DNA from: Sulfurimonadaceae bacterium
Lineage (GTDB): Bacteria; Campylobacterota; Campylobacteria; Campylobacterales; Sulfurimonadaceae
Reading direction: 5' to 3'
Assembly (NCBI GenBank): GCA_041571435.1
Contig: JBFFUI010000045.1
Span: 1 to 15,665 of the forward strand
DNA length: 15,665 bases
The notes beneath the pieces are model-generated. The model had not been told where the DNA came from and did no database searches. It saw nothing but the letters and a program-made list of their open reading frames with translations. Shown piece by piece: positions 1,100-15,665 of the stretch (position 1 is its first letter; the number at the start of each line of letters is the position of its first letter). The translations under genes were made by a program, and so were the position numbers.

Positions 1100-2707
1100 A
1101 TGCCTATCTATACCGTTATCGCGACCTTCATACTTTCGCTTTTCTTTACCGCATGTACGCCGACACCCGATGTACCTCTCTCACCGGAACTGCAACACTA
1201 TGCCCTTATCAAAAAGAACTGTGAAAGCCTGCGCACAATGCCCGGTATACATGTCCCCGATGCACTTGACAAAGAGTGCCATGACTTTTTACGACGCCTG
1301 GACAAAGTCAATGCCCTGGACTATAAAGTAGCCCACTTCAATGATGATGTCGAGGACCCGTATGCAAAACCGAAACCGGAATATATTCTGCTGCAAAAAG
1401 ATGCAAATCAGCAGCACCTTATAGCCAAAGTCGAATACGAAGAACTCAGCAACACTATCAACCGTGTCTCTCTGGATGCGGTCGAACAAAACGAACTTGC
1501 CGATGTCCAACTGACGCTGCTCTTTCCCGAGACTACATTTACAAAAGCGCATTATGACTACTACAAGCGACAGGCTGCCGAGTATCATGACGTCCCTCAA
1601 TATGTCACCTATAAAAAAAATTATGCCGAAGAGTTGGTCGACCTGGGTCTGGTCCACCTGAGTGAAGGCGATAAAAAAAGTGCGCTCAATGCGTTTAAAG
1701 CAGCAGCAGAACTCAATAATGCCCAGGCCTTCTACCTTGTCGGCATCATCTATGAGGCCAAACATGTCGATAAAGCAATCGAGTGGTACACCAAAGCTTT
1801 GCAGCAGGGCATAAAAGGTGCGCGCATCAACCTCGCACGTCTCTACAACCGCAACCATGAGCCAAAAGAGGCCCAACGGCTCTATCATGAAGCGGCGGAA
1901 GACGGTGATGCTTATGCCCAATACCTGCTTTACGAACAGTACATACAGACGGACAACACTAAAACAAACGCCATGGCCCGTGAATGGGTACGACGATCGG
2001 CAGAGAACGGTTTCCCGCCGGCAGAGTATGCCTATGCAAAAATGCTCCTGAAAGAGGAGAAAAAACCCGAAGCACAAGAGTGGCTCACCAAGGCGCATGA
2101 GCACGGCATACGTGCAGCCAATGAACTCCTGGGCGACCTTTACTACAGCAACAAGCACTATGTTGAAGCTGCTGAATATCTCGGCGCTGCAGAGAGCGCA
2201 AAGGCCAAATATAAGTTGGCCGGCATGTATGAGCAGGGGCTTGGTGTCGAGACCAACTACTACCGCGCTTACATCCTCTATAAAGAGGCTGAGAGACTCG
2301 GTGAGAAAAAGGCCAAAAAAGATGTTGCACGCCTGGCTAAACTGAAAACACCAAAAGAAGAGGCCCATTATGATGCGGCAAAACGCAAAGAGAGACAACT
2401 TCTACAAGAACAGATAGAACGCAACGGAGAAGATCCGATACTCCGCAATATCAGGACCAAAGGGATGCGTGTTCACCTGCAGGGGCTGGTCATGCTGCCA
2501 TTGGAGAAGGGTCACGGCTTTATTATCCACAGTGAAGACGGCAAGAAGTTCTATGTGATCGACCAACAACAGCAGGCAGATGTCGAGCAGTACCAATATG
2601 TCGATATTACGGCAGAGGCTACAGGCAACCCTATCACTGTCAGCAACAACATCGGCCTGACGCGTGATATCTATCAATTCAGGTTTCAGAAACATTGTTC
2701 CCAATAA
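1100..2707 (+). CDS. Sel1/TPR-repeat lipoprotein, paralogue 1 (535 aa)
   Basis: Hydrophobic signal ending in lipobox LFFTA-C, then a Pro-rich tether and an N-terminal Cys pair. About 7 helical repeats follow (e.g. AQAFYLVGIIYE...AIEWYTKA; AKYKLAGMYEQGLGVETNYYRAYILYKEA). The C-terminal beta-rich domain ends IYQFRFQKHC. Confidence 0.9.
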   Translation: MPIYTVIATFILSLFFTACTPTPDVPLSPELQHYALIKKNCESLRTMPGIHVPDALDKECHDFLRRLDKVNALDYKVAHFNDDVEDPYAKPKPEYILLQKDANQQHLIAKVEYEELSNTINRVSLDAVEQNELADVQLTLLFPETTFTKAHYDYYKRQAAEYHDVPQYVTYKKNYAEELVDLGLVHLSEGDKKSALNAFKAAAELNNAQAFYLVGIIYEAKHVDKAIEWYTKALQQGIKGARINLARLYNRNHEPKEAQRLYHEAAEDGDAYAQYLLYEQYIQTDNTKTNAMAREWVRRSAENGFPPAEYAYAKMLLKEEKKPEAQEWLTKAHEHGIRAANELLGDLYYSNKHYVEAAEYLGAAESAKAKYKLAGMYEQGLGVETNYYRAYILYKEAERLGEKKAKKDVARLAKLKTPKEEAHYDAAKRKERQLLQEQIERNGEDPILRNIRTKGMRVHLQGLVMLPLEKGHGFIIHSEDGKKFYVIDQQQQADVEQYQYVDITAEATGNPITVSNNIGLTRDIYQFRFQKHCSQ

Positions 2708-2721
2708 AAGCGAGGTCCACC

Positions 2722-4293
2722 ATGCACCATATCTTTCTCATAACAGTGATGTCGATGCTGTTGACTGGCTGCCTGAGTGCACCCAAACCGCAAACACACC
2801 AAAAACTCGCCGGCTACCAGAGCCTCAAAAAAAGCTGCGAACAGACCCCACCTCAGGCAGTTCGGCAGGAGTGCGCTCAACTGATCACCGATCTTAACGA
2901 AGAGAACAGACTGCTTGACGAAATGCAGCGGATAAAAGAAGATACTAACCAAGAAGCCGCTTACATCACACTTGCTGACAAAGAGTCGATCCTGGCGCAG
3001 AAGCTTGCCGACGATAGAAAGCTTTTGGCCCAAACGTGTCAGACGCAGATCGCCGCTATCGTCGACAGTGATGACCTCAACAGTGTTGCCTTCTGTCTTC
3101 AGTTCGAAGAGAACAGCATCACCCATCATGAGTACAGCTACTTAAAAAAGCATGCCCCAAAATTTGACAGCAATCCGCAGTACAGAGCGTATGAAACACA
3201 CTATGCCAAGAAAAAGCTCAACGAAGGGATCAAGGCGATGAACAGTGGTGATAAGCGCAGTGCCCTGAATGCGTTTAAAGCCGCTTACGATGCCGGAAGT
3301 GCGGAAGCAGCCTATCTTGTCGGTATTGTCTACGAAGAAAAACAGATCAAAAAAGCGATCGCCTGGCACCAAAAAGCACTTGCCGAAGGCGTTCTTCTCT
3401 CCAAGCTCAATCTGGCCAGACTCTATCTTCGCGTCAAACTGCCGGACAAAGCAAGAGGATGGTATCTGAGTGCCGCAGAAGAGAACAACGCCCTGGCCCA
3501 ATACCAACTCTTTAAGATGGATGCAAAATCAAAAAGTCTAAAACGCCAGATGGAGGCGTTGGCATGGCTTGAGCGTTCTGCAAAGAACAACTACCCGCAG
3601 GCGCAGTATATCTACGGGCTGCAGCTCCTTAAACAGAAAAATGCACAGGAGGCGCAACTCTGGCTGGAAAAAGCCTACGCAAACGGTATCAGTGAAACGG
3701 CTGGTTTCTTAGGAAAACTCTATTTCGAAGAGGCTGCGTACGAAAAGGCCTACCCTCTGCTTGCCAAGGCCGAAGCGAGAGGCGAAGCCAACTACCTTTT
3801 GGCCAGGATGTATGAAGACGGCCTGGGGATCAAAAAGAACAGTCTCTTAGCCTATCGTCACTATAAAAAAGCGCATGAACTCGCCCATAACAACTACATT
3901 GCAGACATGAAGCGTCTACAAAAAAAGATGACTAAAAAAGAGCGACAAGCGGCCACATATATCGATAAAAAAGAGGCAGCAAAAGCGAAAGAGCTGGCCA
4001 AAAACTGCGGTCTCCCCGCCACACACAAAAATATTGCAGCAGCGAAACGAACCGTCCATATCGTAGGTGTCGCTGTCACACCTCTCGAAGAAGCCAGCGG
4101 CTTTATCGTCTATGGTGAAGATGAGAAACGTTACTATATCGTTGCCCCAGAGACGGCACCAAAGATCAAACCTTATACCTATGTCGATATCAAAGCAAAA
4201 ACGACGGGCCAAGCTATCACTGTCAGCAGTGACAGCGGAGCACTTCAACCCGTCTACCAATTCCATCTTCAAAAAAACTGTATTAACAACTAA
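2722..4293 (+). CDS. Sel1/TPR-repeat lipoprotein, paralogue 2 (523 aa; start re-assigned to ATG 2722)
   Basis: GAGG RBS at 2712-2715 before ATG 2722. The signal MHHIFLITVMSMLLTG-C is a lipobox. Colinear with paralogue 1 (GDKRSALNAFKAA vs GDKKSALNAFKAA; YVDI; TG-x2-ITVS; YQF-x3-K-x-C). Confidence 0.9.
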   Translation: MHHIFLITVMSMLLTGCLSAPKPQTHQKLAGYQSLKKSCEQTPPQAVRQECAQLITDLNEENRLLDEMQRIKEDTNQEAAYITLADKESILAQKLADDRKLLAQTCQTQIAAIVDSDDLNSVAFCLQFEENSITHHEYSYLKKHAPKFDSNPQYRAYETHYAKKKLNEGIKAMNSGDKRSALNAFKAAYDAGSAEAAYLVGIVYEEKQIKKAIAWHQKALAEGVLLSKLNLARLYLRVKLPDKARGWYLSAAEENNALAQYQLFKMDAKSKSLKRQMEALAWLERSAKNNYPQAQYIYGLQLLKQKNAQEAQLWLEKAYANGISETAGFLGKLYFEEAAYEKAYPLLAKAEARGEANYLLARMYEDGLGIKKNSLLAYRHYKKAHELAHNNYIADMKRLQKKMTKKERQAATYIDKKEAAKAKELAKNCGLPATHKNIAAAKRTVHIVGVAVTPLEEASGFIVYGEDEKRYYIVAPETAPKIKPYTYVDIKAKTTGQAITVSSDSGALQPVYQFHLQKNCINN

Positions 4294-4302
4294 AGGAGCA
4301 TT

Positions 4303-5871
4303 ATGCGTTTTTATTTTTTCGGACTTATCCTATCACTGTTTTTCACCGGCTGCGGACCGCAGCCCGATGCACCGCTGGCTCCGAAGCTGAGTGAATATGC
4401 GACGGCTCAAAAACAGTGCAGCGAATTTATATACGGCAAAAAAGAGCTAAACAGCGCTGTCGAAAAAGAGTGCGACAAATTTATCAAGCGACTTGACAGA
4501 GCAAACACAATGGCCTATAACCTGAAAAACAAAGAGTTTAAAAAAGGTGAAGAGGTCGAAAAAGAGAAAGTCTATGCGCGTGAACGTCTCAGGGTCAAGA
4601 ACCGCTTCAACAGCCTCTCCAAGGCGGTTAAAAAAGCCACACTCCTTGCCATTGAACACGACGATGTCGATCACTTTATACAGGGGATTTCCTTCCCAGG
4701 CAACACCTTTATCGCCCCCTATTATGACTATATGAAGAGCAAAGGAAGTCAGTTTACTAAAGATCCGCGATACATTGACTTTGAAGAGCAGGAGAGCAAA
4801 CGACTGATGGAAAAAGGTACGCAGTACCTCCAGAACGGCAACACGGTTCAAGCACGCGAACTCTTCGAAGCAGCTGCTGAAATGGGCAATCCGGCAGCTG
4901 CCCGTGAGACAGGGACCCTCTACGAAGAGAGTGACATCAAACAGGCGCTCTACTGGCACCATAAGGCTGTTGACGGTGATATCAAGGACTCCTATCTGAA
5001 CCTCGGTCACCTTTATGAGCGTGAGGGTCAAAACGAATCGGCACTCAACTGGTACCTTCGATCTGCTGCGGAAGAGAACGCAAAGGCCCAGTATCAGCTC
5101 TATCTCTACTTTTTGGACAAGAACAGAAGCAGGGCCGTCTCCTGGCTGGAAAAATCTGCCAACAACCAATACCCGCTTGCCCAGTACACCTACGCAAAAA
5201 TTCTTATCAAAGGGACAAAGCGCGATCAGGCCATTGAATTGCTGAAGCAGGCTTCACGCAACAACTATACGCCGGCCTCGGACTACCTCGGTACCTATTT
5301 CTATGATCTGAAACTTTATAAAAGTGCCTATACACAGCTTTCCAAATCCGAGAGTGCCGACTCTTTTTACCTGCGTGCCAAAATGCTTGAAGAAGGGACC
5401 GGTATGGAGCGAGACTATAAACTGGCATGGACCTTCTATACGCAAGCGGCTTACCTCGGTAAAAAGGGGGCCAACAACGATGTAGAAAGAGTCGATCGGC
5501 TCATGATCGAAGAGAAACGCCGTCTGGCCGAAGAGGAGAAGAAGAAGCAGAGTGCAAAGATGGCGAAGCTCGTGAAAGAGTGCGGCAAAATTCCGACACG
5601 TTCATCCATGAAAAAACGTGGCAGTAAACTCCATATCACCGGCCGGGCATCGATGCCGGTCGGCCGCCGCAGTTTTATCATCTACGGTGATGACGGCGAA
5701 GACTATTACCTGCTGCAGGCAAAAGGGATCCAGGAAGATGACTATGTCGACATCTCGGTTGTCTCGACAGGCTCTACCGCCTCGGTAAGTACCGGCGATG
5801 ATGAGAATACTGCGAATATCTACCAGTTCAGGTTTCTGAAAAAATGCGAACTTGAGGAAGACGCGCAGTAG
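4303..5871 (+). CDS. Sel1/TPR-repeat lipoprotein, paralogue 3 (522 aa)
   Basis: AAGGAG RBS and lipobox LFFTG-C. Sel1-like repeats (SYLNLGHLYE...ALNWYLRSAAEENAKAQYQL; MLEEGTGMERDYKLAWTFYTQAAYLG). Same C-terminal domain ending IYQFRFLKKC. Confidence 0.9.
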   Translation: MRFYFFGLILSLFFTGCGPQPDAPLAPKLSEYATAQKQCSEFIYGKKELNSAVEKECDKFIKRLDRANTMAYNLKNKEFKKGEEVEKEKVYARERLRVKNRFNSLSKAVKKATLLAIEHDDVDHFIQGISFPGNTFIAPYYDYMKSKGSQFTKDPRYIDFEEQESKRLMEKGTQYLQNGNTVQARELFEAAAEMGNPAAARETGTLYEESDIKQALYWHHKAVDGDIKDSYLNLGHLYEREGQNESALNWYLRSAAEENAKAQYQLYLYFLDKNRSRAVSWLEKSANNQYPLAQYTYAKILIKGTKRDQAIELLKQASRNNYTPASDYLGTYFYDLKLYKSAYTQLSKSESADSFYLRAKMLEEGTGMERDYKLAWTFYTQAAYLGKKGANNDVERVDRLMIEEKRRLAEEEKKKQSAKMAKLVKECGKIPTRSSMKKRGSKLHITGRASMPVGRRSFIIYGDDGEDYYLLQAKGIQEDDYVDISVVSTGSTASVSTGDDENTANIYQFRFLKKCELEEDAQ

Positions 5872-12848: not shown

Positions 12849-13460
12849 TTATAATTTACTAAAATTTTCTAAAATCTGAAGGCCATTTTTATGGCTCTTT
12901 TCAGGGTGGGGCTGGATCCCCATCACGTTGTCGTGCGCGACCGCACTGGTGAAGCTGTAGCCGTACTCTGTCCGGCCGATCGTGTCGGACGGGTTCTCGC
13001 AGACCGCGTGGTAGGAGTGTACAAAGTAGAGGTAGTGCTCGTCATCAAGCTTTTCAAAGAGCGGATGCTCTTTCGTAAACATCCGGTTCCATCCCATATG
13101 CGGCACCTTCAACGGATGGTCAAAACGTGCGGTGTCAAACGCCTGCACGTGCCCCTTGATGAGCCCGAGCCCTTTGCTGTGGCCGAACTCCTCGCTCGAG
13201 TCAAAGAGCAGCTGCATACCGAGGCAGATCCCCAGCATCGGGGCACCCGATGCGGCATACGTTCTTAGTGCCTCGTCCATACTGCGCGCGCGCAGATGTT
13301 CCATCGCGTCGGCATAGGCGCCGACGCCCGGCAGGATCAGTTTGTCATAGGTGTGAAACTTGTCCGGGTCGGATTCGACAACCGCTTCATGCCCCAGCAC
13401 CTTAAACGCATTTTTAACAGAGGCAAGGTTGCCCATGTTGTAGTCAACGATACCTATCAT
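12849..13460 (-). CDS. hisH: Imidazole glycerol phosphate synthase, glutaminase subunit
   Basis: DYNMGNL, LPGVGA, GICLGMQLL (catalytic Cys), PHMGWN, YFVHSY and QPHPEKS (His-Glu). Confidence 0.98.
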   Translation of the reverse strand: MIGIVDYNMGNLASVKNAFKVLGHEAVVESDPDKFHTYDKLILPGVGAYADAMEHLRARSMDEALRTYAASGAPMLGICLGMQLLFDSSEEFGHSKGLGLIKGHVQAFDTARFDHPLKVPHMGWNRMFTKEHPLFEKLDDEHYLYFVHSYHAVCENPSDTIGRTEYGYSFTSAVAHDNVMGIQPHPEKSHKNGLQILENFSKL

Positions 13461-14368
13461 TCTCGTTCTCTCTTTCCCGTAAATTTGATGTAGATCGCCA
13501 GCGATATCATCAGCAGCGACACACTGCCGATGATATAGACCGAGTTCAGCATTTTTTCGGGTTCCGTCATGGCGAACTTGAAGACCAGCATCAGGGCCTC
13601 GATCGAGAGGGCGATGATGATGGAGCCCAGGAACCGAACCATCGTCTTGTGCGGATCGGCGGTGCTTTGGCTCTCGCTGTGGCGTCCCAGGACCTCCTCT
13701 TCAAAGAGGGTCTTCACCAGGTCGAAGATGGCGAGCGCCAGCGTCAGAAGGATGGTCGCGCTGAAGATCTCATTGATCTCGACCGTATGAAAGTCAAAGC
13801 CCTGAGAAAAGAAGTAGCCCACCCCTTTCAAAAAGAGCAGCAGCGCTACCATCGTTAGGACGAAGGTGAACGCGGCGTATCCCAGGCGGAAGAAACGGCC
13901 CGAGATCGACTTCATCGGCATCGGGTGGGCGATCTTCAAGACCGCGTTCAGCGGCATGTCCAGACAGGCGACATACTTGATGTTGCCTTCGGCATCAAAG
14001 ATAGGTTTTGACGCGGTGATCGTAAGATCCTGCGTGATCAGGGACGGATACGGGTCGGTGATCGTACAGCGTTTCTCTTTCATCGCGCGGTAGTAGTAGG
14101 CGCGGTTCGATCGGTGCTGACCGATACAGCTGTCCGTGTGCGAACCGTCCGGAAGGTAGGTCGGAGTGACCTGGTCACCCTTCTCATTGAGCAGGTAGAC
14201 CCCTTCGCAGTCCTGCAGGTCGCCCATGATCTTGCGAAGACGGTCCGTGACCGCTTTTTCGGAGATCGAAGGGAGGTTGTTCGGCAGGTTTTTCGAGAAG
14301 AGATAACAGAAGTAGGCACGCGCCTGCGTGCGGCTCTCTGCATAATGCTGCATATCGCGTGATAACAT
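13457..14368 (-). CDS. Cache/PDC sensor-domain membrane protein, resembling Campylobacter PglG (start probably ATG 14368)
   Basis: Cache-like motifs VYLLNEKG, RAYY, ITDPY and TITASKPI...VACLD, followed by about four hydrophobic helices. AAGGGAG RBS lies 5 nt before ATG 14368. The PglG resemblance is recalled from gene position and architecture and was not searched. Confidence 0.8.
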   Translation of the reverse strand: MLSRDMQHYAESRTQARAYFCYLFSKNLPNNLPSISEKAVTDRLRKIMGDLQDCEGVYLLNEKGDQVTPTYLPDGSHTDSCIGQHRSNRAYYYRAMKEKRCTITDPYPSLITQDLTITASKPIFDAEGNIKYVACLDMPLNAVLKIAHPMPMKSISGRFFRLGYAAFTFVLTMVALLLFLKGVGYFFSQGFDFHTVEINEIFSATILLTLALAIFDLVKTLFEEEVLGRHSESQSTADPHKTMVRFLGSIIIALSIEALMLVFKFAMTEPEKMLNSVYIIGSVSLLMISLAIYIKFTGKRERE

Positions 14369-14414
14369 CGTCACTCCCTTGTGTTGGTACCCTGTTGTTC
14401 GTTTAGTAGTCGCG

Positions 14415-14420
14415 ATTATA
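14415..14420 (-). promoter_or_regulatory. -10 box for the pglG-like/his/prmA/ftsH/pssA operon
   Basis: ATTATA on + reads TATAAT on -, about 47 nt upstream of ATG 14368. Confidence 0.6.
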
Positions 14421-14435
14421 GCTTAGAGTTGGTTA

Positions 14436-14467
14436 AGGACACATCAGCAAACCCTGCATACCCTCAG
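14436..14467 (+). repeat. Left terminal inverted repeat
   Basis: AGGACACATCAGCAAACCCTGCATACCCTCAG. Confidence 0.92.
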
Positions 14468-14671
14468 CACTTCAGAGAAATATACAATCAAGGCGGTACT
14501 TTGAAAGCCTAGCCCTAGCTAAGGTAAAAAGTTCCAACGCAGAGTGTGTATTTCTCTGTATTGCCCATAGGGAGGGAAAAAGAGACGCATTCTAGCACAA
14601 CACTTTTTATCCTCATAGCTTTGGCTATGGATCAAAAAAGATGTTGCACTATCTTACCTCTCTTTTACCCT

Positions 14672-14703
14672 CTGAGGATATGCAGGGTTTGCAGATGTGT
14701 CCT
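14672..14703 (-). repeat. Right terminal inverted repeat
   Basis: Reverse complement is AGGACACATCTGCAAACCCTGCATATCCTCAG, with 2 mismatches to the left copy. Confidence 0.92.
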
Positions 14704-14758
14704 TTAGGCCGTTTGCTTAGTGCTGCAGGCCGCTCAAGGGCGCTTCTAATCATCCTTT

Positions 14759-14767
14759 TGCTATAGT
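14759..14767 (+). promoter_or_regulatory. Extended -10 promoter directly abutting the waaC start codon
   Basis: TG-C-TATAGT, then 6 nt (GTCATT), then ATG 14774. No Shine-Dalgarno sequence. Confidence 0.6.
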
Positions 14768-14773
14768 GTCATT

Positions 14774-15665
14774 ATGAATAAAAAGCCCCAACGCATCGCC
14801 ATTGTCAGACTGACAGCCCTCGGTGATATCATCAACGGGAGTATCGTCCTGCAGCTCATCAAAAAGCACTACCCCGATGCCGTGATCGAGTGGTTCTGCG
14901 AAGAGGCCTTTGCCCCGATCCTGGAAAGCCACCCCGACCTGGCCAAGGTCCATGCCGTCCCGATAAAACGGATCAAAAAGAGCAAAGACCTTGCCCTTTT
15001 GAAAACGACCGTCAAAGCCCTCAAAAGTAGCGGTCCTTTCGATCAGATCATCGACATGCAGGGACTGATCAAGTCCGCGGTCGTCGCCCGTCTTATCGGC
15101 AGGAACATCCACGGTTTTGACAAAAACTCCGCACGCGAGTCCCTCGCCGCATGGCTCTACAAGAGCAGCTCCGCCATCGCCTACGAAGAGAACGTCATCC
15201 GGCGCAATATCGACGTGGTGGCAGACGCGCTGGGCTTTACGGTCTCCGACGAGGATATCCTCTCCAAAACGCCCTGCTTCGCATCGCAGCAGCGTCCCTC
15301 CTGGCTTGCCGAAGGGCAGAACATCGCTATGGTCATCGGCGCCTCGTGGCCCTCAAAAGAGTACCCCAAAGAGAAGTTCGCCGAACTCTGTCTGGCACTG
15401 GAGCACTGTAACTGTATTTTGATCTGGGGGAGCGGACGCGAAAAAGCGTACGCCGACTTCATCGCAGAACACGCCGCCAACGCCACGGTCGCGCCGAAGC
15501 TCTCACTGGCCGAGCTGAGAGCCCTCATCGAGCACTGTGACCTCACCATCGGCAACGACACCGGTCCGACCCACCTGGCATGGGCGATGAACCGCCCCTC
15601 CATCACCCTCTTCGGGCCGACCAACACCCGGATGATCTACGCAACCCCGGTCAATCTTGCCTGCG
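14774..15665 (+). CDS. waaC: Lipopolysaccharide heptosyltransferase I (GT9), truncated at the 3' end by the window; missing from the ORF track
   Basis: Manual translation is open to the window end: MNKKPQRIAIVRLTALGDII...IIDMQGLIKSA...GFDKNSARE...GASWPSKEYP...IGNDTGPTHLAWA...ITLFGPT. These are typical WaaC/GT9 motifs. Confidence 0.93.
   Translation, partial: MNKKPQRIAIVRLTALGDIINGSIVLQLIKKHYPDAVIEWFCEEAFAPILESHPDLAKVHAVPIKRIKKSKDLALLKTTVKALKSSGPFDQIIDMQGLIKSAVVARLIGRNIHGFDKNSARESLAAWLYKSSSAIAYEENVIRRNIDVVADALGFTVSDEDILSKTPCFASQQRPSWLAEGQNIAMVIGASWPSKEYPKEKFAELCLALEHCNCILIWGSGREKAYADFIAEHAANATVAPKLSLAELRALIEHCDLTIGNDTGPTHLAWAMNRPSITLFGPTNTRMIYATPVNLAC

Follow-up and report, generated by a model that had tools for sequence, protein, structure and literature searches.

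What kind of element is a 266-nt non-coding segment (14437-14702) that is paired almost from end to end, and what does its interior fold contribute? The segment lies in the window, that is, the complete stretch of 15,665 nt analysed here, which derives from a Sulfurimonadaceae bacterium. A first-pass annotation, made from the sequence alone, had described two hairpins of about 100 nt with the same cap and suggested that their structure is under selection beyond what transposition needs, for instance as a structured RNA, an RNase III-type processing site or a single-stranded or cruciform DNA substrate. Our analysis shows that the element is more than an ordinary MITE (a miniature transposable element with inverted repeats): it is a two-arm, IS5-ended variant of a folded module that occurs across phyla. 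The mechanism that we offer for its spread is a proposal.

Results

A MITE with IS5-type ends

The element is a MITE with IS5-type ends (Table 1). Its terminal inverted repeats (TIRs) comprise 33-nt arms that are 94% complementary. In most relatives, the outermost 16 bp agree with the intact IS5 end at 16 of 16 positions, as opposed to 11 and 12 of 16 in the window copy, in which four changes relative to the IS5 end are mirrored across both terminal repeats. An insertion sequence (IS) of 1264 bp has this common 16-bp end as well; it encodes an IS5-family transposase (NF033581, 254.7 bits at a cut-off of 140), is accompanied by a 4-bp duplication and lacks the module described below in its interior. 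Intact IS5 relatives are present in 4 of 61 genomes, every one of them with the ends of the element. None was detected in the element's own genome with the IS query used, and no IS with the exact end variant of the window copy was found in 301 genomes or 45 metagenome stretches.

Table 1. Features of the element and its surroundings in the window.
Feature	Position	Strand	Remarks
Cache/PDC sensor-domain gene	13457-14374	-	weak Pfam matches
Target duplication, left copy TTAA	14433-14436		exact 4-bp duplication in 17/46 copies family-wide
Left 16-bp terminal inverted repeat, IS5 type	14437-14452	+	11/16 to intact IS5 end
30-bp terminal stem, inner part	14453-14466	+	sequence variable, pairing kept; outside the IS5 ends seen
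Arm 1, 98-nt module	14467-14564	+	72.3 bits with model R1 (built with arm 1 itself)
CAAGGC, 5' half of internal-loop motif, AAG unpaired	14489-14494	+	AAG invariant in 52/52 copies
Arm 1 cap, TAGC-N4-GCTA	14510-14521	+	hand-set helices, 52 copies
AACGCAG, 3' half of motif, AAC bulge	14536-14542	+	AAC invariant in 52/52 copies
Linker mini-hairpin, CC-NNN-GG	14565-14571		loop GNA or its reverse complement in 43/54 copies
Arm 2, inverted diverged homologue of arm 1	14572-14672	-	R1 score, strand folding, relatives' motifs
Arm 2 cap	14616-14627	-	frequent loops match those of arm 1 in reverse complement (54 copies)
Right half of terminal stem	14673-14702	-	includes right repeat 14687-14702, 12/16 to IS5 end
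Target duplication, right copy TTTA	14703-14706		3/4 match to left copy
Glycosyltransferase family 9 (heptosyltransferase) gene	14774-15664	+	flanking gene

The four bases on either side of the element are identical in 17 of 46 copies (shuffled mean 3.3, maximum 10), and one pair of filled and empty sites differs by 266+4 nt. For the window's own site, comparison with genome G005 gives a difference of 266+2 nt, within flanks of low identity (77-80%). The orthologous spacer is devoid of the element in 13 of 15 relatives from the genus, one of them with 93% identical flanks. Two genomes (L076 in G013 and L078 in G006) carry an independent copy in the same spacer, at another position and in the opposite orientation, which identifies this spacer as a repeated target region.

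The genome from which the window derives contains a single copy, probably an inert passenger. Homologues with approximately 66-86% identity, often several per genome, occur in 32 of 100 relatives; most copies measure 264-270 nt, and the two-arm form is found in named GTDB records of Sulfurovum, Nitratifractor, Sulfurimonas and Sulfurospirillum, suggesting a free-living host within the Campylobacterota. Some loci hold deletion derivatives with intact ends, down to plain hairpins of about 53 nt (L106, L107, L113, L121, L122, L311), and in others an extra hairpin is inserted within an arm (L425, L426, L428, L443). At position 14446, the window has an A, which may reflect an assembly error or a variant; contigs from all three sequencing runs that cover the site have a T, making the terminal pair perfect. 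Contigs of four DNA runs contained no joint skipping the element.

Pairing is restored in the lineages that spread

All helices named in the first-pass annotation were recovered in place, including those at 14473/14545, 14498/14528, 14572/14668, 14578/14659, 14598/14642 and 14603/14635, as were both caps (TAGC-CCTA-GCTA at 14510 and CATAGC-TTTG-GCTATG at 14614). Even without the terminal repeats, the interior (14467-14672) folds better than its shuffled counterparts (z about -6.5), reaching -71.2 kcal/mol as plus-strand RNA (z = -6.71), -77.3 as minus-strand RNA (z = -6.43) and -38.6 as plus-strand DNA (z = -6.53), with 0 of 200 shuffles folding as well in each of the three cases. The proposed three-way junction was correct with respect to its two arms but not its linker of about 7 nt, which itself forms a conserved mini-hairpin, so that the junction is four-way and has no unpaired base. 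The loop of this mini-hairpin is GNA in 26 of 54 copies and the reverse complement in 17, which points to inversions at the level of DNA. As DNA, GNA triloops are stable, while their reverse complement gives an RNA UNCG loop; the linker loop therefore does not decide between DNA and RNA.

Fifty-five full copies were extracted and 52 of them aligned, leaving out one with an internal deletion (L026) and two with unreliable ends or alignment (L027, L033). Among these 52 copies, 94.1% of cells pair, compared with at most 50.2% in slid-partner controls, changes have occurred on both sides in 79 of 106 pairs, and the cap pairs of both arms are kept in 50-52 copies; the helices were set by hand, so these counts lean towards the chosen structure, a bias addressed by the slid-partner and tree controls. 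In the tree, which is possibly distorted by recombination between copies, both partners of a pair in the arms changed on the same branch 134 times, versus 25.1 ± 4.7 times for shuffled partners. The unpaired AAG and AAC are invariant, and the variable stems show an average identity of 73%. Homologues thus display both compensatory changes and a conserved cap, and the same-branch changes together with the invariant loop bases bear out the idea that the structure is selected beyond the needs of the terminal repeats.

The timing of the changes is informative as well. On the shortest terminal branches, 62 changes were one-sided and 1 was two-sided (0.5 expected), whereas short internal branches contained 17 two-sided changes versus 1.6 expected. 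New changes break pairs, and the lineages that spread have pairs restored, as would be expected if folded intermediates were selected, or repaired, at mobilisation. Alternatively, imperfect palindromes could conceivably stay paired in the absence of selection if template switching corrected them by copying one side onto the other. Such a process would account for the four mirrored changes in the terminal repeats of the window copy, a variant found in no IS among 301 genomes and 45 metagenome stretches, for the inversions of the linker loop and for the pairing base found at 14446 in three other runs. However, fresh changes on the shortest tips are one-sided. Loops, moreover, would be expected to disappear under such correction, but AAG and AAC do not vary at all and the positions of mismatches are kept. 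As this explanation also fails to account for a geometry that is fixed across phyla, we regard it as improbable.

The two arms are inverted homologues

The arms had been described as differing in sequence while sharing their length and cap. The common cap is real, but the similarity is not limited to it: the arms are inverted homologues and not parts of one RNA. Model R1 scores arm 2 at 21.2 bits on the minus strand (E = 0.0023) versus 14.5 bits on the plus strand, and five relatives (L409-L411, L413, L447) have the full motif in both arms, in inverted orientation. Arm 1 folds better on the plus strand in 46 of 52 copies as DNA and in 39 as RNA; for arm 2, the minus strand is favoured in 48 copies as DNA and in 51 as RNA. 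Likewise, G.T and A.C mismatches number 146 and 35 in arm 1 versus 30 and 56 in arm 2, whose fixed mismatches read as tandem G.A and G.T on the minus strand. In each arm, the tandem G.A is located 8 bp beneath the cap; in arm 1, the tandem G.A/A.G position joins 14503-14504 with 14526-14527, with one of the pairs being A.A in the window copy. At one locus (L032 1380-1580, in G051), both arms contain the full motif and point the same way.

The arms are thus optimised for opposite strands. According to crude gene calls, 47 of the 55 copies could be classed, 21 in divergent, 21 in tandem and 5 in convergent spacers, while 176 of 720 spacers in 25 contigs of the own genome are divergent. Copies in tandem spacers are read on the plus strand in 10 cases and on the minus strand in 11, indicating no orientation bias. 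Because divergent spacers are favoured and an orientation bias is absent, these data argue against a role in mRNA, although a preference for AT-rich targets could by itself explain the enrichment in divergent spacers. The window copy, too, sits in a divergent spacer, upstream of two putative conserved -10 boxes (14415-14420 and 14762-14767) that point away from it, and a scan of 14340-14800 for promoters and terminators called no such site. Among the functions initially considered, a single structured RNA or an RNase III-type site is thus not supported, and a single-stranded or cruciform DNA substrate emerges as the better option. Rfam 15 yielded no gathering-score match for the window or for the elements in 56 related loci; weak matches to miRNA and snoRNA families were rejected as generic hairpins.

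A different possibility is that the module works as RNA, with a folded transcript being processed or bound by a host protein, such that insertions are made harmless or transcript stability is tuned. The inverted doublet would then provide one active arm whichever strand is transcribed. The excess of G.T over A.C in arm 1 and the finding that the strands are separated more by RNA than by DNA energies fit this scenario, as do stems of about 22 and 33 bp, which are multiples of the 11-bp turn of an RNA helix. Moreover, arms without TIRs adjoin the ends of tRNA-Phe, -Asn, -Gln, -Met and -Val-like genes and of SRP RNA (see below), and the available text of one source describes an orientation-dependent effect of the enterobacterial repeat ERIC on mRNA stability (PMC2229807). 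On the other hand, the spacer distribution, the location of the window copy upstream of both putative -10 boxes and the scan without a called promoter-like or terminator-like site do not point to transcription, a constant spacing from the transposon ends makes no evident sense for an RNA, and copies are not orthologous between species. Overall, we consider a function as RNA rather unlikely.

A module shared across phyla and end types

The module, CAAGGC..TAGC-N4-GCTA..AACGCAG, was found as a strict pattern in at least 122 GTDB stretches, and the 80 stretches listed include Bacteroidota, Bacillota, Desulfobacterota, Gemmatimonadota, Myxococcota, Beta- and Gammaproteobacteria, Saccharibacteria and Campylobacterota. 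Among the matches listed, the typical form is a one-arm element of 160-170 nt, the inner stem is paired in 63 of 81 cases, and terminal repeats are present in 54 of the 60 with full flanks. In 48 one-arm elements among these matches, the motif lies 56 ± 4.5 and 55 ± 4.9 nt from the two ends, with unrelated end sequences. The stems of one-arm elements covary (score 0.596 versus 0.171 for shuffled stems), whereas conservation of motif and cap in this set is circular because the pattern fixed those letters; related caps with other central pairs also occur. In 51 viral stretches, no autonomous form with the module and a gene between the ends was detected, and matches to a loose pattern were mostly due to chance, since the model scores only 7 of the 51.

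The ends of these elements match different transposons. A search of 26 genomes for IS630 partners gave an IS630 match in 17, and in 5 of these 17 the ends of the one-arm element are those of the IS630 in the same genome (14-16 of 16 positions). Two-arm elements in the Campylobacterota show at least eight end types with unchanged geometry, one of them equivalent to an IS701 end (15 of 15) and another to the end of a two-frame IS5-type element with a 3-bp duplication (14 of 15), the corresponding IS being located in another genome in both cases. For 7 of 11 other end types tested, no partner was found among 45 loci. At one locus (L290, from 1280 onward, in G112), a one-arm element immediately adjoins its cognate IS630, and the two have the CTAG site between them in common. 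Paired copies at L034 and L035 enclose ordinary genes and no partner gene.

With IS5-family MITEs (NF033581, DUF772 and DDE_Tnp_1), the element shares its 16-bp ends, 4-bp duplication, empty sites, non-coding nature and multiple copies. In contrast to these MITEs, its interior did not arise from the IS by deletion; it shows greater conservation than the ends and recurs in elements that have IS701, IS630 or other ends. As described in the accessible parts of the literature, the repeats bcr1 of Bacillus and CIR of Caulobacter invite comparison by their two-arm, cruciform-like folds, with compensatory changes reported for bcr1 (PMC3184786, PMC2229807), but these descriptions mention neither an IS partner nor a module spanning phyla. 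More generally, the portions of the literature available to us treat ERIC, bcr1 and CIR as repeats that fold and derive the ends of MITEs from IS, with no core described across end types (PMC3733652, PMC2759123, PMC11602168, PMC10969869, PMC3184786, PMC3201880, PMC2229807). We found no paper on a structured core common to different end types, although MITE catalogues in supplements may list members unremarked.

ERIC (also IRU or RU-1), like the element, is non-coding, intergenic and paired end to end. In the available text, it is a 127-bp enterobacterial MITE, listed as MITEEc1 under IS630 (PMC11602168). In E. coli K-12, the relaxed pattern AAGGCG..TA(C/G)-N4-(G/C)TA..AACGC gave 14 matches versus 3 for a control, and these matches agree with the RU-1 sequence as printed in the accessible part of PMC2759123. 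ERIC differs in having one arm, a motif 26 nt rather than 55 nt from the end, a longer inner stem and TA ends. Only 3 of 12 ERIC-like loci reached E < 0.05 with model R1 (best score 22.9 bits), and a filtered search of the whole E. coli K-12 chromosome with this model produced no match, so that the kinship is likely but not proven, ERIC being a likely short relative. Classification of the element itself as ERIC/IRU was rejected, given its length of 266 nt instead of about 127 bp, its 4-bp rather than TA duplication and its IS5-type rather than TA ends.

The cap further recalls the substrates of Y1/HUH enzymes. As given in Table S1 of PMC3201880, the accessible part of that source, the right-end hairpin of IS608 is topped by an identical TAGC-N4-GCTA cap, carried on a C/G stem, and the left end contains CAAGGCG and AACGCC, and the strand-specific hairpins and inverted doublet of the element resemble REPINs. 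The caps might thus be binding sites for such an enzyme, as in IS200/IS605 ends or REPINs, with the IS-like ends being secondary. The element, however, has target duplications and ends that match those of DDE transposons and is not linked to a Y1 gene. A Y1/RAYT linkage was rejected because the module was absent from the flanks of all 28 Y1 loci examined in 11 of 16 genus genomes, most of which have GGGGTCAGG-type ends of their own; moreover, covariation favours a C.A mismatch below the cap, not the bulged base of IS608. A primary role of Y1/HUH enzymes is therefore the least probable of the explanations considered, and in our view very unlikely. Y1 genes of about 260 aa between GGGGTCAGG-type inverted repeats (L325-L346, and in the own genome L323 at G000:C1:587-913) resemble TIRtrons as described in the accessible portion of PMC3733652.

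TIR-less arms at tRNA and SRP RNA ends

In addition to complete elements, arms that lack TIRs but have the exact boundaries of the module adjoin the ends of tRNA and SRP RNA genes; at tRNA ends, their orientation is fixed and they are kept vertically. At 10 of 30 tRNA-Phe loci, such an arm follows 3-4 nt after the tRNA in the same orientation (own genome: G000:C29:21709-21806, L356/L359; others: L360-L367, L370, L373). Its boundaries are those of arm 1, and its cap is mostly TAC-N4-GTA, as in ERIC. Further TIR-less arms lie directly after tRNA-Asn, -Gln, -Met or SRP RNA genes or directly before the 5' ends of tRNA genes (L389-L391, L394, L396, L401, L402, L404, L444). Two of the loci (L392 and L396) have nothing but a 3' fragment of a tRNA attached to the arm, reminiscent of an attachment-site scar. 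A CCA/TGG target rule for these arms was discarded, as it fails at the SRP-side cases and at L444. Given their fixed orientation and vertical inheritance, the TIR-less arms point to an RNA role of the module; they may be captured remnants or reflect the use of the module as RNA by the host.

Discussion

The usual view of bacterial MITEs is that they arise by deletion from a single IS, with transposase-specific ends and a disposable interior. In the elements described here, by contrast, conservation resides in the interior, whereas the ends can be exchanged among four types of transposase. It is tempting to speculate that the IS5-ended element was likely moved by the IS5 transposase of a visiting IS and that the fold of the module was selected in single-stranded DNA at mobilisation. 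We favour this reading tentatively, rating it at slightly less than an even chance. The element would likely be mobilised in trans. Upon exposure as single strands or as a cruciform, each strand would fold back on itself and thereby join its two ends in a single duplex end. A putative host factor, conserved widely, might bind the invariant AAG/AAC loop together with the cap at a distance of about 55 bp and thus promote folding or synapsis, given that so short an element does not loop readily. With the inverted doublet, either strand would have one arm in the right orientation. Well-folded copies would be favoured whenever a cognate IS visits; the module is thus likely kept because properly folding copies are the ones that are mobilised. 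Pairing also allows the ends to change in concert, by which one and the same module could move among IS5, IS701 and IS630 transposases.

Several observations weigh against these ideas, among them the TIR-less arms at tRNA ends and the end types for which no partner IS was found among the loci searched. The predominance of G.T over A.C, the tandem G.A and the UNCG-like loops fit RNA equally well, and the shorter distance between motif and end in ERIC departs from the spacing of the other elements. In addition, the module is not strictly needed for moving once, because the same ends also occur on plain hairpins and on half elements. In a broader reading, one ancient module would define a pan-bacterial class of hitchhikers, with ERIC as a short member, that retains loop motif, cap and spacing while its ends are repeatedly re-fitted to unrelated DDE transposases (two IS5 types, IS701 and IS630), because these elements transpose through a single-stranded or cruciform folded-DNA substrate read by a conserved host factor. 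This reading is more doubtful than the IS5 scenario, although we deem it possible. If it is correct, ERIC, whose mobilisation is unsettled according to the available parts of reviews, would join a much larger family, and either DDE transposases could act on folded DNA or a common host factor would help very short elements to move. A direct test would be possible, as some genomes contain both an element and its cognate IS and the loop bases that do not vary have been defined.

Two further observations concern neighbouring sequences. At L418, a purD RNA motif (378-509; RF01069, 73 bits) is located right beside a one-arm element. The window itself contains, at 1100-5871, three tandem paralogous genes for Sel1/TPR lipoprotein-like proteins of 522-535 aa.
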